A DNA stretch of 64,000 nucleotides, taken from a bacterium. Lineage in GTDB: Bacteria > Bacillota > Clostridia > Oscillospirales > Acutalibacteraceae. The notes under the pieces are model-generated. The model was not told the DNA's origin, ran no database searches, and saw nothing but the letters and a program-made list of their open reading frames with translations. The stretch is from NCBI GenBank assembly GCA_020624805.1, contig JAHKVW010000017.1, positions 6,185-70,184 of the forward strand, read 5' to 3'. Of this stretch, positions 13,832-59,302 are shown one piece after another. The translations under genes and the position numbers were made by a program. Every line of letters begins with the position of its first letter. Positions within the stretch are counted from its first letter, which is position 1.

Positions 13832-13853
13832 ACGTACACCTTCTTCTATGAAT

Positions 13854-13943
13854 GTCATTGCGAAGCCGCAAAGCGGCTGTGGCAATCTCAACCGATTATC
13901 AAACAGGGAGATTCCCACGTCGGCAAAGCCTCCTCGGAATGAC
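13854..13943. repeat. two REP-like family 1 units in inverted arrangement
   Basis: GTCATTGCGAAG...GTGGCAATCTC and GAGATTCCCACGTCG...CTCGGAATGAC. Confidence 0.8.
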
Positions 13944-19978: not shown

Positions 19979-20007
19979 ACTATCCTTCCCTTCCGAAATA
20001 ATAATAT

Positions 20008-20154
20008 GTCATTGCGAGGAGTCGGTAAATTTGACTCCGCGGCAATCTCAACCGAATATAAATAGTTAATGCGAAAAAAGACGCACGCGTCCAATCTCAA
20101 CCGAATCAAAGGTTGAGATTCCCACGTCGGAGCGTTGCTCCTCCTCGGAATGAC
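20008..20154. repeat. two or three REP-like family 1 units upstream of gltB
   Basis: GTCATTGCGAGG...GCGGCAATCTCAACC and GGTTGAGATTCCCACGTCGG...CTCGGAATGAC; a third partial ...CCAATCTCAACC. Confidence 0.8.
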
Positions 20155-20160
20155 GAAAAC

Positions 20161-24748: not shown

Positions 24749-26113
<1,365 letters not shown>

Positions 26114-26129
26114 TTATATGTTGCACTGC

Positions 26130-26227
26130 AAAAAAAACGCAAAAAAATAAAGGCACCTCGGACTATGTGTCCGAGACGCCTTTGTCTCAACAGCACGAAT
26201 TATACGCCCAAATTGTTCGTTTGTCAA
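26130..26227 (-). promoter_or_regulatory. gdhA promoter plus ANTAR-type hairpin/terminator
   Basis: TTGACA-N17-TATAAT, then GAGAC[AAAGGC]GTCTC inside the terminator 5' arm (...GGTGCCTTT ATTTTTTT). Confidence 0.85.
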
Positions 26228-26328: not shown

Positions 26329-26420
26329 TTGACATCAAAAAATAATTATGTTAAAGTGTTAGCGGAACAAAGGCGTTCATTTGAGGCAGTATTCTGCGCT
26401 GCCCCAAATGGCGCTTTTTT
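26329..26420 (+). promoter_or_regulatory. GS-like 1 promoter plus ANTAR-type attenuator, copy 1
   Basis: TTGACA-N17-TAAAGT; GAAC[AAAGGC]GTTC; terminator ending GGCGCTTTTTT. Confidence 0.85.
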
Positions 26421-26430
26421 ATCTTTCATA

Positions 26431-26474
26431 ATCATTGCGAGGGCTCGGCACGATTGTCGGCTCGCGGCAATCAC
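26431..26474. repeat. REP-like family 1 unit between the tandem attenuators
   Basis: ATCATTGCGAGG...CGCGGCAATCAC. Confidence 0.75.
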
Positions 26475-26489
26475 AACTGATCTCGATAT

Positions 26490-26539
26490 GAACAAAGGCG
26501 TTCATCTAGACTGTTCCGGGTCTAAGTGTCGCCTTTTTT
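26490..26539 (+). promoter_or_regulatory. ANTAR-type attenuator, copy 2, before GS-like 1
   Basis: GAAC[AAAGGC]GTTC; terminator ending TCGCCTTTTTT. Confidence 0.85.
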
Positions 26540-26591
26540 ATATTTATATGTTTTTATATGGCATTACCTCTGAAAAGGAGCGAGTGAGAGC

Positions 26592-27800
26592 ATGAATCAT
26601 ACAGAGCAGGAATTGATGAAGCAGATCGAAGAAGAGGACGTCAAATTCATCCGTCTTTCCTTCTGTGATATCTACGGCGTTCAAAAGAATATTTCGATCC
26701 AGCGCAGCGAACTGCCCAGAGCCTTTGAGAAAGGCATCGGGATCGACGCTTCCTACATCAACGGCTTCGGCGGCGATTACGGCAAGGATATCTGGCTCCA
26801 TCCCGAGACGGATACGATCACGGTTCTGCCGTGGAGACCCGAGCACGGCAAGGTCGTCAGGATGTTCTGTACGCTGACCTACGAGGACGGTACTCCTGTC
26901 GAGACCGACACCCGCGCGGTATTAAAGGACGCTGTCAAATACGCCCAATCAAAGGGCTATCGCTTCCACTTCAAGTCCGAGCTGCAGTTCTATCTGTTCA
27001 AGACGGACGGCGACTCGGAGAATACCGGCGTTCCCTATGACAACGCAGGGTATATGGACATTGCGCCTCTCGACAAGGGCGAGAACGTGCGCCGTGAGAT
27101 CTGTCTGACGCTCGAACAGATGGGGATCGATCCCGAAAGCTCCCACCATGAGGCAGGACCCGGACAGAACGAGATCGACTTCCGCTATTCCGATCCGATC
27201 ACTGCCGCGGACAATACCGTGACTTTTCTCAGCGTCGTGCGCACTATCGCCGCACGCAACGGGCTTTATGCCGACTTCTCCCCAAAGCCGATCAAGGATA
27301 AGACCGGCTCGGCGCTGCATATTTCCGTATCGACAAAGGCAAAATCAGGAGAGGATGTGACCGACGCCGCGATCGCGGGCATCCTGCATAATATCGCCGG
27401 TATGACGGTATTCCTCAACCCGAAGGCGGAATCCTTTGAGCGCTTCGGCAAGCACAAAGCTCCGAAGTATATCACATGGTCACAGACGAATCGTTCTCAG
27501 CTTGTATTCTCGCGGCATACCGAAAGCGGCAGCCGCTGTGCTCAGCTGCGTTCACCCGACCCTCAGGCGAATCCGTATCTGGCATACGCCCTGATGATCT
27601 ACGCGATCATGGACGGTATCGAAAACGGCAGAACGTTACCGCAGCCCACGGATGAAAACGTCTTACAGCTCATCACCGATTCAGCAGAACCCCAAAAGCT
27701 GCCCGACAGTCTGGAGAAGGCGCGTATCGAAGCAACAAATTCACCGCTTGTACAGCGGTTCATCCCCTCGGCAGTGACCATGGTTTACTGTGCAGATTAA
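26592..27800 (+). CDS. glutamine synthetase type I-like protein, catalytically degenerate (paralog 1)
   Basis: GS fold motifs (VKFIRL.FCDI.G, HHEAGPGQNEIDF, RSPDP.ANPY), but ELQF, HKAP, LVFS and QLRS replace EPEF, YEAP, IRIP and EVRS; 402 aa. Confidence 0.85.
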   Translation: MNHTEQELMKQIEEEDVKFIRLSFCDIYGVQKNISIQRSELPRAFEKGIGIDASYINGFGGDYGKDIWLHPETDTITVLPWRPEHGKVVRMFCTLTYEDGTPVETDTRAVLKDAVKYAQSKGYRFHFKSELQFYLFKTDGDSENTGVPYDNAGYMDIAPLDKGENVRREICLTLEQMGIDPESSHHEAGPGQNEIDFRYSDPITAADNTVTFLSVVRTIAARNGLYADFSPKPIKDKTGSALHISVSTKAKSGEDVTDAAIAGILHNIAGMTVFLNPKAESFERFGKHKAPKYITWSQTNRSQLVFSRHTESGSRCAQLRSPDPQANPYLAYALMIYAIMDGIENGRTLPQPTDENVLQLITDSAEPQKLPDSLEKARIEATNSPLVQRFIPSAVTMVYCAD

Positions 27801-27874: not shown

Positions 27875-28456
27875 TTGGACTTTACAGAGCACCGGTACAG
27901 AATACTGATCGTATCCTCGGACGACAGGTTCGGCAGAGAAGTCAGCACTCTCCTGCAGGGCGACCAATTTCAGCAGGATTTTTCCCGCAGCGCGTCGGAC
28001 GCCCGCTGTAAGCTGCTCGAAAACCAATACGATTTTGTGATCGTCAACGCGCCGTTGAGGGATGAGTTCGGCTCCCGTCTGTGTATCGATATCAGCCGCA
28101 ACAACGGCACCATCGCCGCGATCTTTGCGGCAACCGATACCTATGACGAGATCTACGCGAAGGTGTCCGTGCACGGCGTTTTCGCGCTCCATAAGCCGAC
28201 CTCCAAAACACTGGTCTCTCAGGCGGTGTCGCTGATGGTGTGCGCCAGAGAACGTCTGCGGTCGTTGGAAAAGAAGGTCGGCAACACCGAGAGCAAGCTC
28301 GACGAGATCCGCATCGTCAACAAAGCCAAATGGCTGTTGATCGATCAGGAAGGGCTGAGCGAGGCGGACGCGCATAAGTATATCGAGAAGTCCGCGATGG
28401 ATGCCGGTATCACCAAACGGCTTGCCGCTCAAATGATCATTGACAAATACCTGTAA
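27875..28456 (+). CDS. ANTAR antiterminator with pseudo-receiver domain (paralog 1)
   Basis: C-terminal RIVNKAKWLLI...SEADAHKYIEKSAMD ANTAR domain; phospho-Asp position is Asn (FVIVNAP). Confidence 0.9.
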   Translation: MDFTEHRYRILIVSSDDRFGREVSTLLQGDQFQQDFSRSASDARCKLLENQYDFVIVNAPLRDEFGSRLCIDISRNNGTIAAIFAATDTYDEIYAKVSVHGVFALHKPTSKTLVSQAVSLMVCARERLRSLEKKVGNTESKLDEIRIVNKAKWLLIDQEGLSEADAHKYIEKSAMDAGITKRLAAQMIIDKYL

Positions 28457-28497
28457 TAGGCGTATTTTCTAAGAGAGAATACGTCTTTGTCTTTTTC
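28453..28497 (+). terminator. terminator between ANTAR1 and glmS resembling a degenerate ANTAR element
   Basis: AGGCGTATTTTCT/AGAGAATACGTCT stem plus TTTTT; 3' arm ACGTCTTTGTC is complementary to GACAAAGACGT. Confidence 0.6.
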
Positions 28498-28535
28498 GGG
28501 CAGTTGACATATTATATTAGTAAAGGAGAACACTT

Positions 28536-30362
28536 ATGTGCGGAATAGTAGGATATGTCGGACCGCGTGACTGCGCGGATGTGCTGGTATCGGCTCTGAC
28601 AAAGCTGGAATATCGCGGATATGACTCCGCCGGTATCGCCGTGTTTGAAAACGGAAAGATCGAAGTCGCCAAAACCAAGGGCAGACTGGCTGATCTGACC
28701 GAGAAGATGGAGAAAGAAGGCAAGCCGCAGGGTCACGCCGGAATCGGCCATACGCGCTGGGCGACCCACGGCGAGCCGCGCGATATCAACTCTCACCCCC
28801 ACTCGGGGCGCAGGGTCACCATCGTCCATAACGGCATCATCGAGAACTACAAACAGCTCAAGCAATTCCTGATCGAAAACGACCGCACCGAGTTCCTCTC
28901 CGATACCGACACCGAGGTCGTGGCGCAGCTGCTTGACTTCTACTATGAGGGCGATCCCATTCGCTGTATCCGCCGTACGCTCCACGAGCTGCGCGGTTCC
29001 TTTGCGCTGGGGATCGTTTTCGCCGACCGTCCCGAGACCGTTTACGCGGTACGGTGTGAAAGCCCGCTGATCGTCGGTCAGGGTCAGGACGAGGTGTTCA
29101 TCGCCTCCGATGTGCCCGCCATCATCAAATATACCAAGGAATACTATCTGCTGGAGCAGGGCGAGATCGCGATCCTGAAAAACGGCAGTGTAGATTTTTG
29201 CACCCTGCACGGCAGAAAACTGAAGAAGGAACTGCTCTTTGCCGACTGGGATGAGGACAGCGCCGAAAAGGGCGGTTATCCGCACTTTATGCTCAAGGAG
29301 ATCCATGAGCAGCCCACCGCCGTCAAAACGACGGTCACGCCGCGCATCGAGGACGGTCTGCCCGATCTGTCCGAGTGCGGCATCATTTTCGGCACGCTGA
29401 GAAATCTGAAAAACATCTTCATCGTCGCCTGCGGTACCGCTATGCACGCCGGTATGGTGGGCAAATATGTCATCGAAAAGCTCGCGCGTGTACCCGTAAC
29501 AGTCGATATCGCCTCCGAGTTCCGCTATCGCGATCCGCTGTTGACGCACGACGACCTGATCATCATTATCAGCCAGAGCGGTGAGACCGCCGACAGTAAG
29601 GCAGTACTGAGTCTCGCCAAGTCGCGCGGCGCCAAAACGCTCGCGATCGTCAACGTCAAGGGCAGCTCCATTGCCAGAGAAGCCGATATGGTCATCTACA
29701 CCCACGCGGGTCCCGAGATCGCCGTCGCCTCCACCAAGGCGTATATGGTCCAGCTCGCGGTCATGTATCTGTTCGCCTTTGAAACAGCGCTCGCCAAGGG
29801 TAAGCTCGAGGAGAAGGAGTGCCGCAGACTGACTGCCGCGCTGCTCAAAATGCCCGATGTGATCGAGAAAACCATCGACAAGGTCATGGATATGTGCCAG
29901 TATGTTTCCACCAAGCTGATCACCGCCGACAGCCTGCTGTATATCGGCAGGGGGCTTGATTACGCGCTGTCGATGGAGGGCTCCTTAAAGCTCAAGGAGA
30001 TCAGCTATATTCATTCCGAAAGCTACGCCGCGGGTGAGCTCAAGCACGGTACGATCTCGCTGATCACCGAGGGGATGCCCGTGATCGCTGTCGCGACGCA
30101 GAACACCCTGCTCGAAAAGACCGTCAGCAACATCAAAGAGGTCAAGGCGCGCGGCGCGATGACCATCGTGATCTGTGACGAAGAAGCGGATATCGACGCG
30201 GACGCGGTCGACTACATGATCCGCATCCCGAAGATCAATGAGACGCTGATGCCGATGGTCGCCACAGTGCCCATGCAGCTCCTCGCGTACTACACCTCGG
30301 TCAACAAAGGCAACGACGTCGATAAGCCCCGCAATCTCGCCAAATCCGTCACGGTTGAGTAA
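28536..30362 (+). CDS. glmS: glutamine--fructose-6-phosphate aminotransferase
   Basis: MCGIVG, EYRGYDSAG, GHTRWATHG, SQSGETAD, ELKHG, PRNLAKSVTVE. Confidence 0.97.
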   Translation: MCGIVGYVGPRDCADVLVSALTKLEYRGYDSAGIAVFENGKIEVAKTKGRLADLTEKMEKEGKPQGHAGIGHTRWATHGEPRDINSHPHSGRRVTIVHNGIIENYKQLKQFLIENDRTEFLSDTDTEVVAQLLDFYYEGDPIRCIRRTLHELRGSFALGIVFADRPETVYAVRCESPLIVGQGQDEVFIASDVPAIIKYTKEYYLLEQGEIAILKNGSVDFCTLHGRKLKKELLFADWDEDSAEKGGYPHFMLKEIHEQPTAVKTTVTPRIEDGLPDLSECGIIFGTLRNLKNIFIVACGTAMHAGMVGKYVIEKLARVPVTVDIASEFRYRDPLLTHDDLIIIISQSGETADSKAVLSLAKSRGAKTLAIVNVKGSSIAREADMVIYTHAGPEIAVASTKAYMVQLAVMYLFAFETALAKGKLEEKECRRLTAALLKMPDVIEKTIDKVMDMCQYVSTKLITADSLLYIGRGLDYALSMEGSLKLKEISYIHSESYAAGELKHGTISLITEGMPVIAVATQNTLLEKTVSNIKEVKARGAMTIVICDEEADIDADAVDYMIRIPKINETLMPMVATVPMQLLAYYTSVNKGNDVDKPRNLAKSVTVE

Positions 30363-30556
30363 AGGCCCCCTTTCCTAAGGAGATTCCCCTGTTAGGGGAA
30401 ATGTCCGCAAAGCGGACAAAAGGGTCTGCAGCCTCCGCTGAGGAGTGCTGGCGCCGATAGGCGACTGGGGGTTGATACTTTTTAAGTCATATATTTCAAT
30501 AAAGATTGCAGGCAACCCTCCGCCCCTGCGGGGCACCTCCCTTAGAAAAGGGAGGC
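30363..30556. repeat. REP-like family 2 cluster (CCCCT...AGGGG hairpins)
   Basis: Short GC hairpins (TGTCCGCAAAGCGGACA, CCTCCCCTTAGAAAAGGGAGG) similar to 32192-32460 and 33777-33802. Confidence 0.6.
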
Positions 30557-30800
30557 AAAAAAGTACAGACCCCGTCGCAAGGCGGAGTCTGTAAACCAAA
30601 GGGGAGTGTGTGCAATTTTCTTTTGGCAATAAATAATGTTGATGAAGTATATATTGTTATAAGAAATCTCCCCTAAAGTCCGTTTTTGATCCTGATTTGA
30701 ATAGATCAAGATCACGAAAAAAGAAGGGTTTTGGGATTCCAAAACAGCAAAAAAGCGCCTTGAACCCCCTTGGGGGATTCAAGACGCCTTTGTCTTTACT
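30557..30800 (-). ncRNA. candidate ANTAR-controlled small RNA (~245 nt)
   Basis: Strong promoter plus attenuator with no RBS-led ORF downstream; two internal hairpins; ends at a hairpin plus U6 at 30557-30592. Confidence 0.5.
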
Positions 30801-30835
30801 GAGTGCATTATACGCTCCGATAACCAAATTGTCAA
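30749..30835 (-). promoter_or_regulatory. orphan promoter plus ANTAR-type attenuator
   Basis: TTGACA-N17-TATAAT; AGAC[AAAGGC]GTCT; terminator ...GGGGGTTCAAGGCGCTTTTTT. Confidence 0.85.
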
Positions 30836-30874
30836 GTGTTTTCAAAATATTTTAACGCTTTGATGTGCGAAAGA

Positions 30875-30903
30875 TTGACACGGCACGCCGATAATGATAT
30901 GAT
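30875..30903 (+). promoter_or_regulatory. sigma70 promoter of GS-like 2 (no ANTAR hairpin in the leader)
   Basis: TTGACA-N17-TATGAT. Confidence 0.65.
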
Positions 30904-30941
30904 ACAGAAGAAGATTTCACTTCTGAAAAGAGGGTGTCACC

Positions 30942-32150
30942 GTGACAACGGAAGAAAACCAGATCATGCAGTATATCGAGGAAGAGGACGTCAAGTTCAT
31001 CCGTCTTGCTTTCTGCGATATTTTCGGCGCGCAAAAGAATATCTCCGTCCAGCCCACCGAGCTGCAAAGGGCATTTGAAAGGGGCTATCCGATCGACGCT
31101 TCTTATGTGTCGGGCTTCGGCGGCGATTACGGCGTCGACGTTTGGCTGCGTCCCGAAGCGGATACCGTTTCCGTTCTCCCGTGGCGGCCGGAGCACGGCA
31201 AGGTGATCCGGATGTTCTGCGCACTGTGCTACTCAGACGGCAGACCGATCGAGGCGGATACGCGCTCTTTGTTGCGCGGCGCTGTGGAATATGCCCGCCA
31301 AAAGGGCTATCGCTTCCACTTCAAGTCCGAGATGCAGTTCTATCTTTTCAAGACCGATGAAAACGGAAACCGAACCGCTATTCCCTACGATCACGCGGGT
31401 TATATGGATATCGCGCCGCTGGATAAGGGCGAGAATATCCGCCGCGAGGTATGCCTGACGCTCGAGCAGATGGGCGTCATGCCCGAAAGCTCGCATCATG
31501 AAGCGGGACCCGGTCAGAATGAGATCGACTTCAAGTATGCTCAAGCTCTCCCTGCCGCCGATAATACAAGCACCTTTATCTCCGTCGTCCGCACGATCGC
31601 CGCGCAAAGCGGCTTGTATGCCGATTTTTCGCCGAAGCCGATCTCCGATAAGCCCGGCTCGGCGCTCCATATCCGTATGTCTGTCAAAGCAAAGGACGGC
31701 GAGGACGTCACCGAACGCGCTATCGCGGGTATCCTGAAGAACATCGCGGACATGACCATTTTTCTCAATCCGACCGAAAAATCCTTCAAGCGATTCAACA
31801 AGATGAAAGCGCCTAAATTTATCACATGGTCGGACAAAAACCGCGCTCAGCTGATTTTTGCGACCCGTACCGAGAGCGGCGGCAGATGCTTACAGCTTCG
31901 CTCTCCCGACCCCAACGCCAATCCCTATCTCGCGTTCGCGCTGATGATATACGCGGCGGTCGACGGCATCCAAAACGACTATCCGCTTTCTCCTTCGATC
32001 GATACAGAGCTGCAATACCTCTCCTCATCCGAGCAAAACGAGATAGAGCTTTTGCCCGATACTATCGTCAGGGCGCAGAACGCGGCTCTGAACAGCGACT
32101 TCATCAAGCGGTTTGTCCCCGACAGCATCATCAAAGCATATTGTAACTGA
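30942..32150 (+). CDS. glutamine synthetase type I-like protein, catalytically degenerate (paralog 2)
   Basis: Same length (402 aa) and the same substitutions as paralog 1 (EMQF, MKAP, LIFA, QLRS). Confidence 0.85.
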   Translation: MTTEENQIMQYIEEEDVKFIRLAFCDIFGAQKNISVQPTELQRAFERGYPIDASYVSGFGGDYGVDVWLRPEADTVSVLPWRPEHGKVIRMFCALCYSDGRPIEADTRSLLRGAVEYARQKGYRFHFKSEMQFYLFKTDENGNRTAIPYDHAGYMDIAPLDKGENIRREVCLTLEQMGVMPESSHHEAGPGQNEIDFKYAQALPAADNTSTFISVVRTIAAQSGLYADFSPKPISDKPGSALHIRMSVKAKDGEDVTERAIAGILKNIADMTIFLNPTEKSFKRFNKMKAPKFITWSDKNRAQLIFATRTESGGRCLQLRSPDPNANPYLAFALMIYAAVDGIQNDYPLSPSIDTELQYLSSSEQNEIELLPDTIVRAQNAALNSDFIKRFVPDSIIKAYCN

Positions 32151-32191
32151 TAATACGAAAGGCAGTCTGTTTTCGTGACCGATAGAGCACC

Positions 32192-32460
32192 AAGCCTTCC
32201 CCTCGGGGGGAAGGTGGGCAATTTGCTCTGTGCAAATTGGTCGGATGAGGGGCTGACTTATCCGACTGTTCTTCTTAACAAAGAGAGTAATGTTTTTCCT
32301 TTATTCTCGGTATACTTTTCGCCTCACCGAGTCCGACATCACCGGGAAAGGCTATCCCCCTCATCCGTCACCCTACGGGCGACACCTTCTCCTCGCCGGA
32401 AGCGGCTCCCCCCTTGTCCTTCGGACATTCCCCCAACGGGGGTACCCCGAGGGGAAGGCT
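32192..32460. repeat. REP/MITE-like family 2 cluster between convergent genes
   Basis: Termini AAGCCTTCCCC...GGGGAAGGCT; internal CCCCTCATCCG/CGGATGAGGGG inverted copies. Confidence 0.65.
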
Positions 32461-32559
32461 TTTTGGCGACATATGACAATAAAAGATTTATCTTTTGGAC
32501 GAAAGTTCAAGGGACTGTGGAAACAAAGCATGACGCTTTATTTCCACAGTCCCTTCATT

Positions 32560-33738
32560 TTATCTCAATAACTTTTTGATTCTCTCTACCGCTTCTACGG
32601 TGTTCTCTCTGTCGCCGAAGGAGGTCAGTCGAAAATAGCCTTTTCCCTGACTGCCGAAGCCCTCGCCGGGGGTTCCGACCACCTGCGCGTTTTCGAGAAG
32701 GTAATCGAAGAACTCCCAGCTTCCCATGCCTTTGGGGCACTCCAGCCAGATATACGGTGAGTTTTTACCGCCCGTATAGAATATCCCCAGCTCGTCGAGC
32801 GCCGCGGAGATAATCCGCGCGTTCTCTTTATAGTATTCGATATTTGCTTTGAATTCTTTTTGTCCCTCTTCGGAGAATACGGCGGCCGCGGCGCACTGCA
32901 CGGGATAGGACACGCCGTTGAATTTGGTCGCCTGACGGCGGTACCAAAGGGCATGGATATTGTGACCGTCGCGGACAAGCTCCTTCGGGATCACCGTATA
33001 GCCGCAGCGCACACCGGTAAAGCCCGCTGTCTTTGACAGAGAGCAGAATTCGATCGCACATTCTCTTGCCCCGTCGATCGCAAAGATCGAGCGCGGACAA
33101 TCATCCTCGATAAACGCCTCATATGCCGCGTCGTACAGGATGACCGCGTCATTTTTAATGGCGTAATCCACCCACGCCTTGAGCTGATCGGTACTGTAAG
33201 CCGCGCCGGTGGGATTATTCGGCGAGCAAAGATAGATGATATCCGCATGGATGCTCTCGTCGGGCATGGGCAGAAAACGATTCTCCCGCGTACCCGGCGC
33301 GTATACGATCTTCCTGCCCGCCATGATGTTCGCGTCGACATAGACGGGATAGACGGGATCGGGCACCATCACGGTGTTATCGGCGCCGAAAATATCGCCG
33401 ATATTGCCCGTGTCGGACTTTGCGCCGTCGCTGATAAAGACCTCATTCGCTTCGATCTTAACGCCGAAGCCGTCATAGTATCGGGCGACCGCCTCACGTA
33501 CAAAATCATAGCCCTCATATTCGGGATAACCCTTGAAGGTCTCTTTGAAGCTCAGCTCTCCCGCGCCGACCTTCATCGCCTGTACGGCAGTGCGCGGCAG
33601 CGGGAGCGTAACGTCGCCGATGCCGAGCCGGATGAGCTTTTGCTCAGGATGCGCGGCGGCATACGCCGAAGTCTTTTTCGCTATCTCGGCAAAGAGATAG
33701 TTTGGGACTAAATTATCAAAATTTCGGTTGATCTTCAT
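32560..33738 (-). CDS. dapL: LL-diaminopimelate aminotransferase
   Basis: NYLFAEIAKK, LGIGDVT, SDGAKSD, CSPNNPTG, SLSKTAGFTGVRCG, FRLTSFG. Confidence 0.95.
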   Translation of the reverse strand: MKINRNFDNLVPNYLFAEIAKKTSAYAAAHPEQKLIRLGIGDVTLPLPRTAVQAMKVGAGELSFKETFKGYPEYEGYDFVREAVARYYDGFGVKIEANEVFISDGAKSDTGNIGDIFGADNTVMVPDPVYPVYVDANIMAGRKIVYAPGTRENRFLPMPDESIHADIIYLCSPNNPTGAAYSTDQLKAWVDYAIKNDAVILYDAAYEAFIEDDCPRSIFAIDGARECAIEFCSLSKTAGFTGVRCGYTVIPKELVRDGHNIHALWYRRQATKFNGVSYPVQCAAAAVFSEEGQKEFKANIEYYKENARIISAALDELGIFYTGGKNSPYIWLECPKGMGSWEFFDYLLENAQVVGTPGEGFGSQGKGYFRLTSFGDRENTVEAVERIKKLLR

Positions 33739-33800
33739 ATCGTTTCCTTCCTTGGCAGGTTGAGATACAGTTATTCAAGGCTCCCTTTGGTAAAGGGGAG

Positions 33801-34382
33801 CTATAGATATCTGTCGATCACGATCTGAGCCGCCTGACGCTTGGTGATCCCCGCCGCCATCGCCTGCTGTTCGATATACCGATGAGCATCGATCTCGCTC
33901 ATATCCTCATTATCGATCAAAAACCATTTTGCTTTGTTGACGATGCGGATCTCCTGCAGTTTATCCTCGGCTTTGCCCGCCTTTTTCTCTACGGTTCTCA
34001 ACATCTCGCGCGCGGAGATCAAGAGAGATAACGCCTGTATGATCGTCTGCTGTGAGGACGGCTTGCGAATGACAAAAACGCCGTAAGACACGGTTCTTTG
34101 CATGATGTCCTCGTACACATCCGAGGGCGCGAAGATGACCGCCAGCGTGCCGACATGATCCGTCACGTCGATGCACAGGTGCGAGCCGAACTCGTCGCTG
34201 AGCGGCGCGTTGACGATCACAAAATCATAGCTCTTTTCCGTCAGAACGCGTCTTGCCTCGCCCGCGTTCGTCACATGATCGGTGTGAAAATGTCTTTCGC
34301 GCAGAAGGGAGCTTATCTCTTGCATGAACCTTTCAGACAGCGAGACCACCAACGCATGATAGCGAACCTGTTCTAAAGTCAT
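33801..34382 (-). CDS. ANTAR antiterminator with pseudo-receiver domain (paralog 2)
   Basis: YDFVIVNAPL (Asn at the phospho-site); RIVNKAKWFLI...SEIDAHRYIEQQAM. Confidence 0.9.
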   Translation of the reverse strand: MTLEQVRYHALVVSLSERFMQEISSLLRERHFHTDHVTNAGEARRVLTEKSYDFVIVNAPLSDEFGSHLCIDVTDHVGTLAVIFAPSDVYEDIMQRTVSYGVFVIRKPSSQQTIIQALSLLISAREMLRTVEKKAGKAEDKLQEIRIVNKAKWFLIDNEDMSEIDAHRYIEQQAMAAGITKRQAAQIVIDRYL

Positions 34383-34431: not shown

Positions 34432-34516
34432 AAAAAGGCGCTATTCGGGCACAAGCTCCCAAATAAACGCCTTTGTTTATCGAGGCTATTATAGCATTAT
34501 TCGCATATTATGTCAA
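34432..34516 (-). promoter_or_regulatory. ANTAR2 promoter plus ANTAR-type attenuator (autoregulation)
   Basis: TTGACA-N17-TATAAT; AAAC[AAAGGC]GTTT; terminator ...CCCGAATAGCGCCTTTTT. Confidence 0.85.
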
Positions 34517-34570: not shown

Positions 34571-34663
34571 TTGACAAATGAAAATTCGCGTCGTATAATG
34601 CGTGCTGTAAAGACAAAGGCGTTTTGAACCTGCGTGGTTTGAAACGCCTTTGTCTATTTCTTT
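34571..34663 (+). promoter_or_regulatory. glnN promoter plus ANTAR-type attenuator
   Basis: TTGACA-N17-TATAAT; AGAC[AAAGGC]GTTT; 3' arm AAACGCCTTTGTCT then ATTTCTTT. Confidence 0.88.
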
Positions 34664-34682
34664 ACGAAAAGGAGAAGGTATT

Positions 34683-36776
34683 ATGGCAAACGTAGCAGAA
34701 TATTTCGGAAGTCTGGTATTTGACGACAAGACGATGAAAGAGCGGCTGGATCCCAAAATCTACAAGCAGCTCCGCAAAACGATCGACGACGGCGAGCAGC
34801 TGAATATTCAGGTAGCGAACGCCGTAGCCGCCGCGTTAAAGGAATGGGCGGTAGAAAAGGGCGCGACCCACTATACCCACTGGTTCCAACCGCTGACCGG
34901 TATCACCGCCGAAAAGCATGACAGCTTTATCACTCCCTCGCCCGACGGCAGAGTGATCATGGAATTCTCCGGCAAGGAGCTGATCAAGGGCGAGCCTGAC
35001 GCGTCCTCGTTCCCCTCGGGCGGTCTGCGCGCGACCTTTGAAGCAAGAGGCTATACCGCGTGGGACCCCACCTCCTACGCTTTCATCAAGGGCAAGACCC
35101 TTTGTATCCCCACCGCGTTCGCTTCCTACAGCGCCGACGCGCTGGATAAAAAGACGCCGCTTTTGCGCTCCATGCAGGCGCTGAACATTCAGGCAACGCG
35201 CGTCTTGAAGCTCTTCGGCAACGAGGACGTCAAGCGTGTCGTCACCTCTGTCGGACCCGAGCAGGAATACTTTTTGGTTCCCAAGGAGCTGTACGCGAAG
35301 CGCAAGGATCTGATCTATACGGGACGAACCCTCTTCGGCGCGCGTCCTCCCAAGGGTCAGGAGCTCGACGATCACTATTTCGGTACCATCAAGCCGCGTG
35401 TGCTCGCCTATATGGAGGATCTCAACGACGAGCTGTGGAAGCTCGGCATCCTCGCGAAAACCCAGCATAACGAGGTCGCGCCCGCTCAGCATGAGCTGGC
35501 TCCCATCTACACGACGACCAATGTCGCGACCGATCACAACCAGCTGACGATGGAGATCATGCAGAAGGTCGCGGAGCGTCACGGTCTGGTATGTCTGCTG
35601 CACGAAAAGCCCTTTAAGGGCGTGAACGGCTCGGGCAAGCACAACAACTGGTCGATCGGCACGGATACCGGCGTCAACCTGCTCACTCCCGGTGAGACGC
35701 CGTTTGAGAACGTCCAGTTCCTGCTGTTCCTCGTAGCGGTCATCAAGGCGGTCGACGAGTATCAGGATCTGCTGAGACTGTCCGTCGCGACCGCCGGTAA
35801 CGATCACCGTCTGGGCGCGAATGAAGCGCCGCCCGCCGTCATCTCCATCTTCCTCGGCGACGAGCTGACTGCCGTTCTGGACGCGATCGAGAACGATACC
35901 GAGTATGAGGGCACCAAGAAGAAATATATGAAGCTCGGCGTTGACGTTCTGCCGCGTTTCAGACGCGACACCACCGACCGCAACCGTACCTCGCCCTTTG
36001 CGTTCACGGGCAACAAGTTCGAGTTCCGTATGCTCGGTTCCTCCAACTCCATCGCCTGCTGCAATATGATGCTCAACTCCGCTGTCGCGGAAGTCTTGAA
36101 GCAGTTTGCGGATGTGCTGGAGAATTCCGAGAACTTTGAAAATGATGTTCACAACCTGATCCGCAAGACGATCAAGGATCACAAGCGGATCATCTTCAAC
36201 GGCAACGGTTATGACGACGCTTGGATCGAAGAAGCCGAAAAGCGCGGACTCTCCAATCTCAGAACCACCGCCGACGCGATGCCGCATCTGCTGGATGAAA
36301 AGAACGTCGCGATGCTGACCTCTCATAAGGTGTTCACCAAAGCGGAGCTGGAAAGCCGCATGGAGATCATGTTGGAAAACTACGTCAAGCAGGTCAACAT
36401 CGAAGCACTGACGATGGTGGATATGACCGGCAAACAGATCATCCCCGCGATCGAAACCTATCTGATGAAGCTTTTGAAGAATGTTTCTATGAAGAAGGCG
36501 ATCTCGCCCGATATCAGCTGCGCCTATGAGACCGCGAACATCGAGAAGCTCTCCGCTGCCTGTGACGAGATGAGCGCCAACGCGGGTATCCTCGAGCGCT
36601 TGGCGGAGCACCTCGCTCATATCGATGATATCGTGGAGCAGGCGAACTTCGTCCGCGACGAGCTCCTGCCGCAGATGGATACGCTGCGCAGCTATGCCGA
36701 CGCCGCGGAAGCGGTCGTTGACGCGGAGATCTGGCCGCTGCCGACCTACGGCGAGCTGCTCTTCGGCGTAAGATAA
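34683..36776 (+). CDS. glnN: glutamine synthetase type III
   Basis: [75 protein letters not shown]; catalytic motifs intact. Confidence 0.96.
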
Positions 36777-36779
36777 ATA

Positions 36780-36825
36780 GGTTGAGATTGCCACAGCATT
36801 GACAGATCAATGCTTCGCAATGACG
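36780..36825. repeat. REP-like family 1 unit
   Basis: GGTTGAGATTGCCACAGC...GCTTCGCAATGAC. Confidence 0.8.
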
Positions 36826-36835
36826 ATTGATAAAA

Positions 36836-36876
36836 GTACAAAGGCGTACTCTGCTTTCGCGGGGTACGCCTTTATT
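36836..36876 (+). promoter_or_regulatory. intercistronic ANTAR-type attenuator before amt
   Basis: GTAC[AAAGGC]GTAC inside the AAAGGCGTACTCTGC/GCGGGGTACGCCTTT stem. Confidence 0.82.
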
Positions 36877-36900
36877 AGTGGTCAGTGGTTAGTGGTCAGT
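36877..36900 (+). repeat. heptamer tandem repeat AGTGGTY x3
   Basis: AGTGGTC AGTGGTT AGTGGTC AGT. Confidence 0.8.
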
Positions 36901-38842: not shown

Positions 38843-39136
38843 TTATATACTGTTTTCCAAATCTCTCTTGCCGTACATTACTCTCAGGATAGAAACAGTT
38901 CCGGCGCTCTCTTCTACCGAATAGAACACAAGATAATTGTCAACAGGCATCAATCGAATATCATTTTTATAGACAGGAAACCGCTTTGGCAGTTGATCGA
39001 GATTTTCGATCCTGTTCTCCAATCGGGATAACTGTGCTTCGGCGTTTTCCGGTGACAGCAATGACAAGGCGATATACTCATAGATTGCGCGGATATCTTT
39101 ATCTGCCTGTGAAGAGATGTTTACCGAATAATTCAC
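38843..39136 (-). CDS. type II toxin, RelE/ParE family
   Basis: YSVNISSQADKDIRAIYEYIA...VDNYLVFY...ILRVMYGKRD. Confidence 0.88.
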   Translation of the reverse strand: MNYSVNISSQADKDIRAIYEYIALSLLSPENAEAQLSRLENRIENLDQLPKRFPVYKNDIRLMPVDNYLVFYSVEESAGTVSILRVMYGKRDLENSI

Positions 39137-39438
39137 AGTTTATAATCCTTTCTGATATCGGCAAACGCTTGCTTTGACTCTTTGACCTTGCCGCTCTTGA
39201 CGTCATCGATCCCCTTTTGCAGTTCAAGGTCGATCTCCTGCTCGGTGAGCTGATTGAAGTTCAATACACTTTGTTCAGGCAATTTCAGTTCAAACGGCAT
39301 TCCTCTTTGCAATATGATCTGTTTGTAAAACATATTGATCGCATTGGATGCGGGGATTCCGAGTGCGGATAGTATACTTTCTGCTTGCTCTTTTAATTCC
39401 GGTTCGATCCTCACATAAAGATTTGCGGTTTTTGACAT
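39133..39438 (-). CDS. type II antitoxin, RelB/DinJ family
   Basis: LYVRIEPELKEQAESILSALGIPASNAINMFYKQIILQRGMPF; GTGA overlap with the toxin. Confidence 0.9.
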   Translation of the reverse strand: MSKTANLYVRIEPELKEQAESILSALGIPASNAINMFYKQIILQRGMPFELKLPEQSVLNFNQLTEQEIDLELQKGIDDVKSGKVKESKQAFADIRKDYKL

Positions 39439-39531
39439 TTTCAATGCTCCTTTCCGTGTGTTCTGTATCTATTATACACAATTGTAAGCACAAACGCAAT
39501 ACATCTGACCGAAATAGTACCGGATCATTTC

Positions 39532-39609
39532 TTGACAAACATCATGACAAGTAATATAATACTTGATGGCAAAGACGCCTTGAATCTCCAAAGCGTCTTT
39601 GCCTTTTTT
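39532..39609 (+). promoter_or_regulatory. purF-carAB promoter plus ANTAR-type attenuator (AAAGAC loop variant)
   Basis: TTGACA-N17-TATAAT; GGC[AAAGAC]GCC; 3' arm GCGTCTTTGCC then TTTTTT. Confidence 0.8.
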
Positions 39610-39627
39610 ATGTAAAAAAGAGGTTTT

Positions 39628-57321: not shown

Positions 57322-58608
57322 TTAATGCTTCGGAAAGGTACAGATGATTTGCAATTTATCGTCATCAACGATCTTCGCCTTGATGGTTCCGTTGTGCTTT
57401 TCGGTGATGGCGCGAGCTACGGACAGTCCGATTCCGAAGCCGCTGTTCTCTTCCTTGGAGCGGGATTCGTCACCGCGGTAGAAGCGGTCGAACAGGTGCG
57501 TCAGCGCCTCCTCGCTCAAAGGCTCTTTCATGGTGTTTTCTGTTTGGAAAATAATGTTCTTTCCCGATTGACGGAGCGATACATGGATATCGCAGTCCTC
57601 GGGTGCGTATTTGACGGCATTGTCGCACAGGATACCGATGAGCCTTCTGACAGCAGCCTCGTCGCCGTTGAATATCAGTTTATCTTCCGCGTTGACGATC
57701 AGGTTTTTGCCGTTGAATTCTGCCATGCCGACGAACGGATCGACGGTATCACGCACGGCGTTTGAAAGGTTGAATTCATGCATTTCCAAAGCGGAATCCG
57801 CTTCATCCATGCGCGAGAGGTAGACCAGCTCGTTCACAAGCTTGCGCATATTGGCCGCCTGTTTTTGAGTGCTCTGTATCCACTCGTTTGGCCCGATATC
57901 CATCGACAGCACATCCATGTTAGTGGAGATGACCGTCAGCGGTGTTTTCAGCTCATGTCCCGCGTCGGTGATGAATCGCTTTTGCCGTTCGATGTTATCC
58001 ATCATCGGCTGTATCGCTCTTTTGCTGAGCAGCGATACCAACAGCAACGACAGCAAAATACCGACCGCGCAGGCGATCAGCGAGATCACGGCGAGCGACA
58101 CGATCTCTGAACGCTTGGATTCGATGTTGAGGAACATTGCGGACTTTGAACCATCAGTATTCTGTGTCACCTGATACAGATAGTTGTCGACATAACCCGA
58201 GGCTTTGCCCGAAGCAAAAATGTTTTCCGCGATCAACAAAAGATCCTCTTTCGCGTACTCGGTTTCCTTAGTGCCTGTACCGAGAAAGGCTTCACCGTCC
58301 GCACTTTGGATCGCGATAAAATACCGTGATTCTTCAAGTTTGGTATTCATGCGGTGATCGCTGCCCTTGTGACGATACAGCTGTGCACTGTCGTCGGTCG
58401 AGAGAGCCTCTTCTTTTTCAATATCAAATTTCCCCTGCTTTTTCTGTGTATTGTTGTTCTCGCTTTCGACAAGGTAGTTCAGCGTTTCTTTTAATTCACT
58501 TGTCGTGTTGACATAATGAACAGCATTGATGACGCCTGCCACTAACAGCATAGCAAGCGCCAGCGCGAGTAACGCAATCTTGATAAAGCGTTGTCTGATC
58601 TGTTTCAT
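57322..58608 (-). CDS. sensor histidine kinase
   Basis: 2 TM; FITDAGHELKTPL; DNAVKY; FDRFYRGD; GFGIGLS. Confidence 0.94.
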   Translation of the reverse strand: MKQIRQRFIKIALLALALAMLLVAGVINAVHYVNTTSELKETLNYLVESENNNTQKKQGKFDIEKEEALSTDDSAQLYRHKGSDHRMNTKLEESRYFIAIQSADGEAFLGTGTKETEYAKEDLLLIAENIFASGKASGYVDNYLYQVTQNTDGSKSAMFLNIESKRSEIVSLAVISLIACAVGILLSLLLVSLLSKRAIQPMMDNIERQKRFITDAGHELKTPLTVISTNMDVLSMDIGPNEWIQSTQKQAANMRKLVNELVYLSRMDEADSALEMHEFNLSNAVRDTVDPFVGMAEFNGKNLIVNAEDKLIFNGDEAAVRRLIGILCDNAVKYAPEDCDIHVSLRQSGKNIIFQTENTMKEPLSEEALTHLFDRFYRGDESRSKEENSGFGIGLSVARAITEKHNGTIKAKIVDDDKLQIICTFPKH

Positions 58609-59282: not shown

Positions 59283-59302
59283 AAACACCTCCGGTGTTTT
59301 TT

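Follow-up and report, generated by a model that had tools for sequence, protein, structure and literature searches.

The 64-kb stretch of DNA analysed here (the window), from a rumen Ruminococcus-like bacterium, encodes two paralogous ANTAR regulators whose receiver domains lack the phosphorylatable Asp, which raises the question of what these proteins control and how they are themselves controlled. We favor, with a probability of roughly 0.55, the reading in which ANTAR1 and ANTAR2 act as nitrogen antiterminators of the NitR type and each is governed through contact with its partner from the glutamine synthetase (GS) family (Table 1).

Table 1. Genes and leader elements in the window
Feature	Position	Strand	Description
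gdhA leader	26140..26227	-	consensus promoter, hairpin UUGAGAC-AAAGGC-GUCUCGG, terminator
GS-like1/ANTAR1 leader	26329..26545	+	promoter 26329-26357; two tandem attenuators
GS-like1 attenuator hairpins	26365; 26488	+	GAAC-AAAGGC-GTTC; ATGAAC-AAAGGC-GTTCAT; each overlapped by a terminator
GS-like1	26592..27800	+	402-aa GS-family paralog; proposed sensor partner of ANTAR1
ANTAR1	27875..28456	+	193 aa; Asp-less receiver, coiled-coil, ANTAR domain
Terminator-like hairpin	28458..28496	+	past ANTAR1, ahead of glmS
Small-RNA unit	30555..30835	-	consensus promoter, ANTAR attenuator 30796-30745, RNA's own terminator 30593-30564
GS-like2 promoter	30875-30903		separate promoter of GS-like2; no attenuator
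GS-like2	30942..32150	+	402-aa paralog, 67% identical to GS-like1; proposed partner of ANTAR2
dapL-like class I/II aminotransferase	32560..33738	-	downstream of ANTAR2, 62 nt apart
ANTAR2	33801..34382	-	193-aa paralog; first gene of ANTAR2-dapL unit
ANTAR2-dapL leader	34432..34516	-	promoter, hairpin, terminator
ANTAR2 promoter	34516-34488	-	perfect TTGACA-17-TATAAT
ANTAR2 hexaloop hairpin	34481-34462	-	GATAAAC-AAAGGC-GTTTATT, then terminator
GSIII leader	34571..34665	+	consensus promoter, hairpin AAGAC-AAAGGC-GUUUU, 20-bp terminator
amt-PII leader attenuator	36835..36878	+	AGTAC-AAAGGC-GTACT, then stem with weak U-tract
purF-carAB leader	39532..39612	+	consensus promoter, 3-bp hairpin GGC-AAAGAC-GCC, terminator
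Histidine kinase	57322-58608	-	HisKA and HATPase_c; overlaps OmpR-type regulator gene
OmpR-type regulator	58605-59288	-	overlaps histidine kinase gene; 23 kb from ANTAR pair

The receivers of ANTAR1 and ANTAR2 lack the phosphorylation site

An earlier note on this DNA had reported that both ORFs contain YDFVIVNAPL, with Asn where the phospho-Asp lies, and alignments to ArlR and Rv1626 agreed, placing Asn58 at this position in both proteins. In the same alignments, the acidic pair is replaced by Ser14-Ser15 in ANTAR1 and Ser14-Leu15 in ANTAR2, Phe84 occupies the position of the conserved switch Thr/Ser, and Lys107-Pro108 is retained. The ANTAR domains scored 50.0 (ANTAR1) and 42.9 (ANTAR2) bits against Pfam ANTAR (cut-off 27.3), and the receivers scored 21.9 and 29.8 bits against Pfam Response_reg, below the cut-off of 30.2, compared to 107.4 bits for the genuine OmpR-type regulator in the window. 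The two proteins are 55% identical overall, with 48% identity in the receivers, 47% in the coiled-coil linkers, and 74% in the ANTAR domains, whose first helix is almost the same (IRIVNKAKW[LF]LID). An AlphaFold model of ANTAR1 (pLDDT 91.6), which has an extended, EutV-dimer-like form, locates N58 where strand beta3 ends on its C-terminal side and resembles RNA-bound EutV (TM 0.74) and also Rv1626 and AmiR (TM 0.63). Judged from their sequences, acceptance of phosphate at the canonical site is impossible for both receivers, as the note had claimed.

The note also described a degraded acidic pocket. The acidic pair is indeed replaced, but this is not local decay, as the Asn is the hallmark of a conserved family. 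Asp58 was found in 0 of 105 genes from related loci, and 113 of 128 distant representatives carry Asn at this position. The family shares the motif S-x...N-x-P-L-x-D-E-x-G, with S14, N58, P60, L61, D63, E/D64, G66, K107, and P108 present family-wide, and the residues of the receiver pocket and beta3-alpha3 loop are invariant across relatives that are only 33-58% identical. This distribution of residues indicates that the Asp-less ANTAR family is large and old and not a product of decay. Asp-less receivers are over-represented on ANTAR outputs, and constitutive activity is known for some Asp-less regulators (PMC4395418).

The sole histidine kinase is paired with its own OmpR regulator, as the note stated, and a motif screen of long ORFs, as distinct from a Pfam scan of every ORF, detected no second histidine kinase in the window. 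Likewise, no conserved kinase gene lies beside the ANTAR gene among the more than 80 loci examined. An orphan kinase encoded outside the window could modify another residue, or the Asn could be irrelevant; the genome is known here over just 64 kb, leaving room for orphan kinases, and Lys107 is kept. We consider such cryptic phosphorylation highly improbable, because the whole family lacks the acidic pair, the phospho-Asp, and also the switch Thr, and because of the counts given above for Asp58 and for neighboring kinase genes.

Putative terminator switches precede nitrogen-metabolism genes

In each leader attenuator, a single C-AAAGRC-G hexaloop hairpin is embedded in an intrinsic terminator, within its 5' arm. 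In 8/8 leaders, AAAGGCG lies within this arm, with the loop reading AAAGAC at purF only and AAAGGC at all others. The sequence CAAAGGCG occurs 14 times compared to 2.8 expected, and the terminators of all eight leaders folded with z-scores of -3.5 to -7.7, implying a leader pattern beyond chance. All genes here are transcribed in rumen metatranscriptomes. ANTAR1 and ANTAR2 appear to jointly control at least eight terminator switches ahead of nitrogen-metabolism genes, among them GSIII, which is likely a working glutamine synthetase and probably starts at ATG 34683 rather than TTG 34650. The small non-coding RNA is structured and conserved over ≈190 nt, about 130 nt of it highly so.

The C-AAAGGC-G hairpin and terminator also precede GS-like, GSIII, gltB, gdhA, purF, dapL, and amt genes in other loci, whose ANTAR proteins are just 40-76% identical. 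Moreover, the hairpin covaries, with 79.7% of cells paired compared to 67.2% in shuffles (0 of 500 as good) and 35-52% in slid controls. A minimal ANTAR site consists of one hexaloop (PMC8934654).

In the target leaders, a C:G-closed hairpin capped by AAAGGC (AAAGAC at purF) lies right after a strong sigma-70-type promoter, and its hexaloop and 3' half double as the bottom of the terminator 5' arm. In the proposed mechanism, the terminator would form by default, and an ANTAR dimer holding the hexaloop hairpin would leave the terminator base unpaired and allow RNA polymerase readthrough. The controlled units would be gdhA, GS-like1-ANTAR1 (through two serial attenuators), ANTAR2-dapL, GSIII, amt-PII, purF-carAB, and the small RNA. 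Two features argue against this mechanism: each target has one hexaloop, compared to the two that EutV needs in vivo, and the U-tract of the amt terminator is poor. In addition, the regulon combines assimilation genes (GSIII, amt) with gdhA and with genes that consume glutamine (purF, carAB), which makes it hard to see in which direction control would run.

The placement of ANTAR1 behind the tandem attenuators of GS-like1, which the note had described, was borne out by its start 75 nt past GS-like1 with no intervening terminator, as was the position of ANTAR2 behind an attenuator of its own and at the head of dapL. By contrast, the note's claim that one paralog is autoregulated was too narrow, because attenuators precede both ANTAR genes; both are probably autoregulated, and each regulator would boost its own production by positive feedback. 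The attenuator that the note assigned to ANTAR2 is present, but its origin lies elsewhere: in the relative L018, which carries a single copy, a matching hairpin sits 89 nt ahead of dapL, implying that the ANTAR2 attenuator is the ancestral dapL leader.

The note further suggested that the paralogs may form heterodimers or read different loops or signals. Two loop sequences (AAAGGC and AAAGAC) occur in the window, which would fit a split of the regulon by loop, and the relatedness of the coiled-coil linkers makes heterodimers conceivable, perhaps as the main active form. However, both loops occur in L018, including GGC-AAAGAC-GCC before carA, where the syntenic region has one ANTAR gene, and both stem classes (ATGARC../GTTCAT and AAGRC/GTCTT) are likewise found in loci showing one ANTAR gene. 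Together with the near identity of the first helix in otherwise 74% identical ANTAR domains, these results do not support a division by loop. We regard the combined reading, division by loop or mainly heterodimeric action, as quite improbable. It is plausible that the two paralogs read different signals.

GS-like proteins as candidate sensor partners

The gene immediately preceding ANTAR encodes a GS-like protein of ≈402 aa in 81/87 cases, among them an Erysipelotrichaceae locus at 31% identity. Two GS-like/ANTAR pairs are present in the window and one in the syntenic region of L018, a pattern indicating that the unit duplicated was the pair and not the regulator alone. ANTAR and GS-like pairwise identities are correlated (r = 0.94), as shared ancestry alone would predict. 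The GS-like proteins scored 265-275 bits on TIGR00653 (cut-off 429), and the nearest sequences to GS-like proteins are GSI-alpha enzymes, most of whose substrate-binding residues are retained. In GS-like1 and GS-like2, the catalytic flap Glu is Lys, two metal-ligand Glu are Gln, and Arg344 is Phe; the flap Lys is found in 85/85 and 120/120 GS-like proteins, and the window's clade adds E131Q, E357Q, and R344F. GS-like1 and GS-like2 are probably catalytically inactive, whereas most of the family retains all metal ligands and may therefore still be enzymes.

The anatomy, conservation, gene pairing, and RNA fold with covariation are established, whereas binding to RNA, contact between the GS-like protein and ANTAR, the ligand sensed, and the regulatory direction are inferred, as is the role of the GS-like protein as sensor partner. 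The input would be not phosphorylation but protein-protein contact of GS-like1 with ANTAR1 and GS-like2 with ANTAR2. The GS-like protein would sense glutamine, glutamate, or adenylate status, hold ANTAR inactive in nitrogen excess, and release it upon nitrogen limitation. This interpretation is supported by the 81/87 pairing, duplication within the clade, the flap Lys, and divergence of the receivers (48% identical) unlike that of the ANTAR domains (74%). Against it, a plain glnA-nitR operon with GS as a mere regulated enzyme gives the same adjacency, most relatives keep their metal ligands, and GS-like2 and ANTAR2 are non-adjacent in this window and transcribed separately.

The same facts allow a doubtful but tenable reading, in which no sensor partner exists and the receivers are locked active and dimeric. 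The amount of protein alone would set activity, depending on leaky attenuators, on positive feedback, and perhaps on abundant short leader RNAs or the small RNA titrating the regulators, and GS-like1 and GS-like2 would be regulated enzymes or enzymes with an altered reaction. The attenuators before both ANTAR genes, the EutV-dimer-like model of ANTAR1, the precedent of constitutive Asp-less regulators (PMC4395418), the intact metal ligands of most GS-like relatives, and production of a short terminated RNA with an ANTAR site from a consensus promoter all fit this reading. However, pure positive feedback would not link these proteins to nitrogen status, and strict selection on the surface motif N-x-P-L-x-D-E-x-G is hard to square with a mere dimerization scaffold. 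The 81/87 pairing and joint duplication also speak against it, as does the Clostridium thermocellum glnA deletion (Rydzak 2017, as summarized in PMC10967112), which deregulates nitrogen genes and elicits a nitrogen-starvation response despite raised glutamine.

The receivers might instead sense directly, with a remodeled pocket of Ser14, Asn58, Asp63-Glu64, and Lys107 binding a metabolite that reflects nitrogen status (for example glutamine, 2-oxoglutarate, or a nucleotide) and thereby shifting the monomer/dimer balance or helix register, and GS-like proteins unneeded for signaling. We regard this as unlikely, as metabolite binding at this receiver site is rare, no analysis result indicates a ligand, and the near-obligate GS-like neighbor, the joint duplication, and the glnA-deletion phenotype are left unexplained. 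In its favor are the invariance of the pocket and beta3-alpha3 loop across divergent relatives and the binding of c-di-GMP by NasT, a precedent for a small ligand on an ANTAR regulator (PMC10783516).

Relation to known systems

Among known systems, NitR (Clostridium), AmiC-AmiR, and NasS-NasT come closest to the proposed sensor-antiterminator pairs. NitR adjoins glnA, and GS/GOGAT are controlled by antitermination (PMC6316151), which is nitrogen-responsive and includes non-coding or antisense RNAs in the circuit (PMC6316151, PMC4676874). The C. thermocellum gene order is GOGAT, type I GS (Clo1313_2031), and REC-ANTAR (Clo1313_2030) (PMC4676874, PMC9888227). As for NitR of Clostridium saccharobutylicum NCP262 and C. 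acetobutylicum, the ANTAR gene here directly follows a type I GS gene. Unlike NitR, as described, the neighboring GS is a 402-aa paralog with a flap Lys and two metal-ligand Gln, GSIII likely serves as the working enzyme, the GS-like/ANTAR pair is present in two copies, and the proposed regulon reaches gdhA, amt-PII, dapL, and purF-carAB.

AmiR of Pseudomonas aeruginosa is also an antiterminator of the ANTAR type whose pseudo-receiver is not phosphorylated, and it is sequestered by a neighbor-encoded ligand-binding partner, whereas the equivalent complex here is only proposed, the partner would belong to the GS family rather than the periplasmic-binding-protein fold, and the pocket motif differs. 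In NasS-NasT of Paracoccus denitrificans and relatives, a sensor holds the receiver-ANTAR protein until ligand frees it to act in nitrogen assimilation (PMC3795266), but NasS binds nitrate/nitrite and NasT targets nas genes. EutW-EutV of Enterococcus faecalis and PdtaS-PdtaR (Rv1626) of Mycobacterium tuberculosis share the REC, coiled-coil, and ANTAR architecture and give the best sequence and fold matches; there, as here, the hexaloop starts with A, has G as its fourth nucleotide, and overlaps a terminator. By contrast, EutV and PdtaR each receive phosphate from a cognate kinase, and EutV depends on a dual hexaloop, whereas phospho-Asp and a nearby kinase are absent here and hexaloops are single.

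In Bacillus subtilis and other Firmicutes, type I-alpha GS senses glutamine and signals to TnrA/GlnR by direct contact (PMC9249791, PMC6316151), and it is this feedback-inhibited class that the GS-like proteins most resemble in sequence. The Bacillus GS is also a working enzyme and TnrA/GlnR are MerR-type DNA binders, whereas the GS paralog here is probably non-catalytic and its regulator would bind RNA.

The two ANTAR genes lie in an island of nitrogen and glutamine genes

The two 193-aa receiver-like ANTAR proteins (ANTAR1 and ANTAR2) and two 402-aa paralogs of the glutamine synthetase family (GS-like1 and GS-like2) are encoded at the centre of an island of nitrogen and glutamine genes, with gltB, gltD, and pyrG upstream and the trp operon downstream. 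Close relatives of the locus are in genomes of uncultured rumen Ruminococcus/Clostridiales. In rumen metatranscriptomes, GSIII was strongly represented and the GS-like and ANTAR genes were low, as judged by contig depth, which is a rough measure.

Genes and hexaloop hairpins of the island
Feature	Position	Strand	Remark
gdhA	24749-26095	-	
GS-like1	26592-27800	+	402 aa
ANTAR1	27875-28456	+	193 aa
glmS	28536-30362	+	
Small RNA	30555-30835	-	
GS-like2	30942-32150	+	402 aa
dapL-like aminotransferase	32560-33738	-	
ANTAR2	33801-34382	-	193 aa
Type III glutamine synthetase (GSIII)	to 36776	+	
Amt-PII fusion	to 38707	+	
ParE/RelB pair	38843-39444	-	
purF, carA, carB	from 39628	+	
Hexaloop hairpin	26190	-	gdhA leader
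Hexaloop hairpins	26365 and 26488	+	GS-like1 leader; tandem, two complete attenuators 123 nt apart
Hexaloop hairpin	30796	-	Small RNA leader
Hexaloop hairpin	34481	-	ANTAR2 leader
Hexaloop hairpin	34610	+	GSIII leader
Hexaloop hairpin	36835	+	amt-PII leader
Hexaloop hairpin	39568	+	purF leader; 3-bp version with AAAGAC

The receiver domains lack the phospho-acceptor Asp, a trait of the family

Both 193-aa proteins passed the cut-off of the Pfam ANTAR model (PF03861; 50.0 and 42.9 bits versus 27.3) and fell below that of the Response_reg model (21.9 and 29.8 bits versus 30.2), on which the true OmpR-type regulator encoded in the window scored 107 bits. HMMER alignments to ArlR and Rv1626 placed Asn58 (YDFVIVNAPL) at the position of the phospho-acceptor Asp, and Ser-Ser or Ser-Leu at that of the acidic pair after beta1 (the Mg2+ site). 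The switch Thr/Ser after beta4 is replaced by Phe84, and the conserved Lys after beta5 is retained (Lys107-Pro108). An AlphaFold model with 52 family members as input (pLDDT 91.6) has a regular five-stranded receiver with N58 ending beta3, and a C-terminal part made of a 49-residue helix and then a three-helix ANTAR bundle (helices 111-159, 163-177, and 181-192); its best full-length fold matches are RNA-bound EutV (TM 0.74), Rv1626, and AmiR. The alignments, the sub-threshold Response_reg scores, and the model bear out the claim of an earlier note that both proteins have Asn for the phospho-Asp and a degraded acidic pocket. A motif screen of long ORFs likewise agreed with its statement about kinases: the sole histidine kinase found in the window lies 23 kb away and shares an operon with an OmpR-type regulator of its own. 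Moreover, no kinase gene is conserved beside the ANTAR gene in the related loci examined. Judged by these residues, phosphorylation at the canonical site is excluded for ANTAR1 and ANTAR2. Cys-based redox control as in RitR was rejected, because ANTAR2 has Cys70 only and the family consensus is without a conserved Cys there.

The absence of Asp, correctly observed for the pair, extends further than the earlier note supposed. Of 118 close homologs, 117 have N58 and 116 have S14; P60, L61, D63, and G66 show little or no variation, and position 64 is E or D. A search of 1.84 billion cluster representatives returned 1845 ANTAR relatives, 909 of them below 1e-10. Position 58 is Asn in 113 and Asp in 7 of the best 128 full-length representatives (33-58% identical), whose family motif is S-[SAG] ... 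N-x-P-L-x-D-[ED]-x-G ... K-P; across 105 ANTAR genes of the fetched loci, it is N in 96, S in 8, Q in 1, and D in none. By this distribution, Asn58 is a family trait rather than decay. AmiR is the classic case of an ANTAR protein with an Asp-less receiver, and we know of no earlier description of the S...N-x-P-L-x-D-[ED]-x-G motif, although the Asp-less class itself is known. ANTAR outputs have already been reported to be enriched in Asp-less receivers (PMC4395418).

Nitrogen gene leaders carry single-hexaloop attenuators

The tabulated hairpins have an AAAGGC cap (AAAGAC in purF), a C:G closing pair, and a terminator after them. In every listed leader, the 5' arm of the terminator starts from the loop sequence (AAAGGCG...), and the 3' arm closes with ...CGCCUUU(U). 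Perfect TTGACA-17-TATAAT promoters start five of the leaders, the terminator is the default fold in 8/8 (z-scores of -3.5 to -7.7), and CAAAGGCG occurs 14 times compared to 2.8 expected. With A as its first and G as its fourth base, the AAAGGC loop conforms to the ANTAR rule for hexaloops (PMC3369931); eight leaders have C-AAAGRC-G hairpins lying within the 5' arm of a terminator, an arrangement in which hairpin and terminator would be mutually exclusive. When 31 distinct hairpins of the window and of related loci were compared, neither the loop nor the closing pair varied, and the next four pairs covaried (A:U, G:C, U:A, and G:U); 79.7% of cells are paired compared to 67.2% in shuffles, none of 500 shuffles equalled this value, and slid controls gave 35-52%. 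The C-AAAGGC-G hairpin with its terminator also lies 5' of GS-like, GSIII, gltB, gdhA, purF, dapL, and amt genes in related loci whose ANTAR proteins are only 40-76% identical. Rfam returned no known RNA family for the whole window at the gathering threshold or for 19900-40000 at E <= 1, and within those scopes no glmS ribozyme (including upstream of glmS), glutamine riboswitch, or ANTAR-target model matched.

The eut, nasF, and amiE leaders contain dual hexaloops (P1 and P2 with a short linker). By contrast, each attenuator of the window has one hexaloop hairpin, which begins ≈10 nt past the -10 box and leaves no space for an upstream P1, and inspection by eye revealed no second ANNGNN hexaloop hairpin upstream of or inside the terminators. 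These attenuators depart from the dual-hexaloop model yet are compatible with the minimal ANTAR site of one hexaloop, which is a structural finding (PMC8934654). If RNA binding is as predicted, the data would show that one hexaloop is enough for an ANTAR attenuator to work, and they yield a compact promoter-plus-attenuator part and a nitrogen regulon map for rumen fibre degraders. Besides assimilation genes, the predicted regulon includes gdhA and consumers of glutamine. In the proposed mechanism, the leader terminator would form by default, and an ANTAR dimer would hold the 5'-proximal hexaloop hairpin, thereby removing the base of the terminator and allowing read-through. This RNA side of the mechanism appears well supported by the anatomy of the leaders.

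Both ANTAR genes stand behind attenuators

ANTAR2 has a promoter, hairpin, and terminator immediately 5' and is the first gene before dapL. In L018, a relative whose syntenic region has only one ANTAR gene, GATGAAC-AAAGGC-GTTTATT, which matches the ANTAR2 leader hairpin, is located 89 nt 5' of dapL, implying that ANTAR2 was inserted into a dapL leader that was already controlled by ANTAR. ANTAR1 follows GS-like1 after 75 nt without an intervening terminator, and two attenuators stand in series ahead of it. The earlier note had placed both genes correctly, ANTAR2 behind its own attenuator and leading dapL and ANTAR1 behind the tandem attenuators of GS-like1, but had counted only one of them as autoregulated. 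Because both stand behind attenuators, ANTAR1 and ANTAR2 are each expected to promote their own production. GS-like2 is preceded by a strong promoter of its own (11 of 12) and by no attenuator, and ANTAR2 would activate itself, whereas GS-like1 and ANTAR1 would be made together behind a double gate; we speculate that this asymmetry makes one pair the trigger and the other the amplifier.

It is unlikely that the paralogs read different loops, as had been suggested, because both AAAGGC and AAAGAC occur in L018, where the syntenic region has one ANTAR gene, and the RNA-binding domains of the paralogs are nearly the same. The companion suggestion that they respond to different signals is consistent with their diverged receivers and two proposed GS-like partners.

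GS-like genes adjoin ANTAR genes, and the pair was duplicated

A 402-403-aa GS-family gene directly precedes the ANTAR gene in relatives that are 76%, 62%, and 59% identical, and such a gene is again directly upstream in an Erysipelotrichaceae genome whose ANTAR is 31% identical. The single-protein scan of the genome collection gave close relatives and one distant locus, and distant context came from a metagenome scan, in which almost all of 80 loci (39-47% identity) have a GS-family gene directly before ANTAR. In total, a GS-like gene lies directly upstream of 81 of the 87 ANTAR genes having enough upstream DNA; of the others, one is on a rearranged contig and the rest are this clade's ANTAR2 orthologs, where GS-like2 is beyond dapL. 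Such modules are very common, with at least 909 clusters of ANTAR relatives at E < 1e-10; proteins of 402 aa annotated as 'glutamine synthetase family protein' number many hundreds in Eubacterium, Lachnospiraceae, Ruminococcus, and Erysipelotrichaceae. The sole distant locus with enough upstream DNA and no GS-like gene before ANTAR (L097:1-3882) has membrane-protein-like ORFs instead, which is probably a rearrangement.

The gene order of L018 (gdhA, GS-like-ANTAR-glmS, dapL, GSIII, amt-PII, carA) is that of the window minus GS-like2 and ANTAR2, which implies that the GS-like/ANTAR pair was duplicated and not the regulator alone. GS-like1 (82%) and ANTAR1 (76%) are nearest to the L018 pair, and GS-like2 (70-71%) and ANTAR2 (61-63%) to the adjacent pairs of two other related loci (L016 and L017). 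ANTAR1 and ANTAR2 are 48% identical in the receiver, 47% in the linker, and 74% in the ANTAR domain, identities indicating that the output side was kept and the input side diverged. A mirror-tree correlation between ANTAR and GS-like proteins (r = 0.94) was dropped as evidence, because adjacent genes share ancestry regardless.

GS-like proteins have altered catalytic residues

The GS-like proteins are nearest in sequence to Firmicute GSI-alpha enzymes, but scored well below the cut-off of the NCBIfam equivalog TIGR00653 (265.7 and 275.2 bits versus 429), and NCBI names their relatives merely as members of the glutamine synthetase family. Aligned to a solved GSI-alpha structure (S. typhimurium numbering), the flap Glu (E327) is Lys in 85/85 ANTAR-linked proteins and in 120/120 further family members. 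GS-like1 and GS-like2 carry E131Q, E327K, R344F, and E357Q, and thus lack the full type I catalytic set (E129, E131, E212, E220, H269, E327, R344, and E357); D50', E129, E212, E220, H269, R321, R339, R359, and Y179 are retained. E131Q and E357Q, which remove one ligand per metal site, and R344F are additional changes in the clade of the window (27/85). By established GS enzymology, such changes should abolish or cripple catalysis while sparing much of the substrate pocket, so that both GS-like proteins are predicted to be catalytically lost or impaired.

GS-like proteins are candidate sensors for the ANTAR regulators

Canonical phosphorylation is excluded, the GS-like gene is the only universally linked gene, the pair was duplicated together, and the receivers diverged; on these grounds we propose the GS-like protein as a sensor of nitrogen status that would control its ANTAR partner by direct contact. 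We assign this hypothesis a probability of roughly 0.4-0.5. A broader reading, which we consider somewhat less likely than not, is that a pseudo-enzyme GS-like protein, as dedicated sensor, and a pseudo-receiver ANTAR protein form a signalling pair, that such pairs are the chief regulators of nitrogen in many Clostridia of gut and rumen, which lack NtrBC, and that two of them run in one circuit here. It is pure speculation that the acidic beta3-alpha3 loop of the receiver (D63-E64) and the flap Lys of the GS-like protein, both invariant, touch each other.

Partner control of a pseudo-receiver ANTAR by the product of an adjacent gene is found in AmiC-AmiR; here too an Asp-less receiver is accompanied by an adjacent gene for a candidate ligand-binding partner (81/87), although the partner family, GS, is unlike AmiC. 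The proposal also resembles NasS-NasT, in which a sensor protein controls an ANTAR protein by contact. NitR has been known since the 1990s. As described for NitR (PMC6316151), the ANTAR gene is directly 3' of a type I GS-family gene here, and nitrogen-assimilation genes have terminator leaders. By gene order and this description of NitR, ANTAR1 and ANTAR2 belong to a NitR-like, Asp-less ANTAR branch of a known kind. There is also a conceptual likeness to Bacillus, where feedback-inhibited GS acts on TnrA and GlnR (PMC9249791). Three features appear to be new: the family-wide coupling to a flap-Lys GS paralog together with metal-ligand loss in this clade, the duplication of the whole pair, and the consistent use of single-hexaloop attenuators. 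Nitrogen sensing in strictly anaerobic gut and rumen Firmicutes is poorly understood, and an established input signal for NitR was not found in the literature searched; the altered GS paralog is a concrete proposal for the sensor.

In C. thermocellum, the REC-ANTAR gene Clo1313_2030 adjoins the type I-alpha GS gene Clo1313_2031 and a GOGAT cluster (PMC4676874, PMC9888227), and deletion of glnA (Clo1313_2031), as relayed by a later paper, leads to a nitrogen-starvation response despite rising glutamine and 2-oxoglutarate (Rydzak 2017 via PMC10967112). By analogy, this phenotype would be expected on loss of a negative sensor and may provide independent support. If true, a GS-like sensor would explain this puzzling engineering result, in which glnA deletion deregulates nitrogen metabolism.

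A small RNA and other elements of the island

The small RNA has a perfect TTGACA-17-TATAAT promoter, an ANTAR attenuator, a strong fold (z = -7.0), and its own terminator, and it is conserved in 7/7 clade relatives. No convincing ORF and no Rfam match were seen in it, and when start-codon regions of the window were searched for sites with which it could pair, the only matches were trivial ones to U-tracts or RBSs. It may be a nitrogen-regulated small RNA, or an ANTAR decoy like EutX. Antisense control of glmS from its minus-strand promoter at 30835 was rejected, because the transcript stops at a conserved terminator ≈200 nt short of the glmS 3' end.

A second recurring element occurs at 13850-13935 (-), 19990-20160 (-), and 36775-36830 (+), just upstream of pyrG, gltB, and amt. 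Its layout is GTCATTCCGAGGAGG...CCGACGTGGGAATCTC...GGTTGAGATTGCC-hairpin-TCGCAATGAC, with ends able to pair, and the amt copy is the 3' half only; GGTTGAGATTG occurs 6 times compared to 1.1 expected, and the gltB and amt copies had no Rfam match. This element could be a small repeat or, alternatively, another control element linked to nitrogen that acts as RNA or DNA.

Nearly all genes of the ≈40-kb stretch 12239-51963 make or use glutamate or glutamine (pyrG, gltBD, gdhA, glmS, GSIII, amt-PII, purF, carAB, trpE/G, and the remaining trp operon), which makes it a nitrogen island of unusual density. The ParE toxin/RelB antitoxin pair sits between amt-PII and purF, and a DUF6290/ParE pair lies between GSIII and GOGAT in L017, so that toxin-antitoxin modules recur within these nitrogen loci. 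The intergenic stretches after glmS (30363-30545) and GS-like2 (32150-32560) are GC-rich with many hairpins and vary in length and content among close strains, with insertions of 100-300 nt in the related loci L002 and L010. Immediately 5' of glmS (28456-28536) there is a terminator-like hairpin with only weak promoter matches, and glmS may be expressed from transcripts that run on from ANTAR1. As called mechanically, the GSIII ORF begins with TTG at 34650, within the leader terminator; the true start is probably ATG at 34683, behind a good ribosome-binding site. Finally, metatranscriptome contigs (runs X1, X2, and X4) fuse 33755-33808, at the ANTAR2/dapL junction, to 36779-36797, at the end of GSIII, which suggests related strains with another gene order around ANTAR2.
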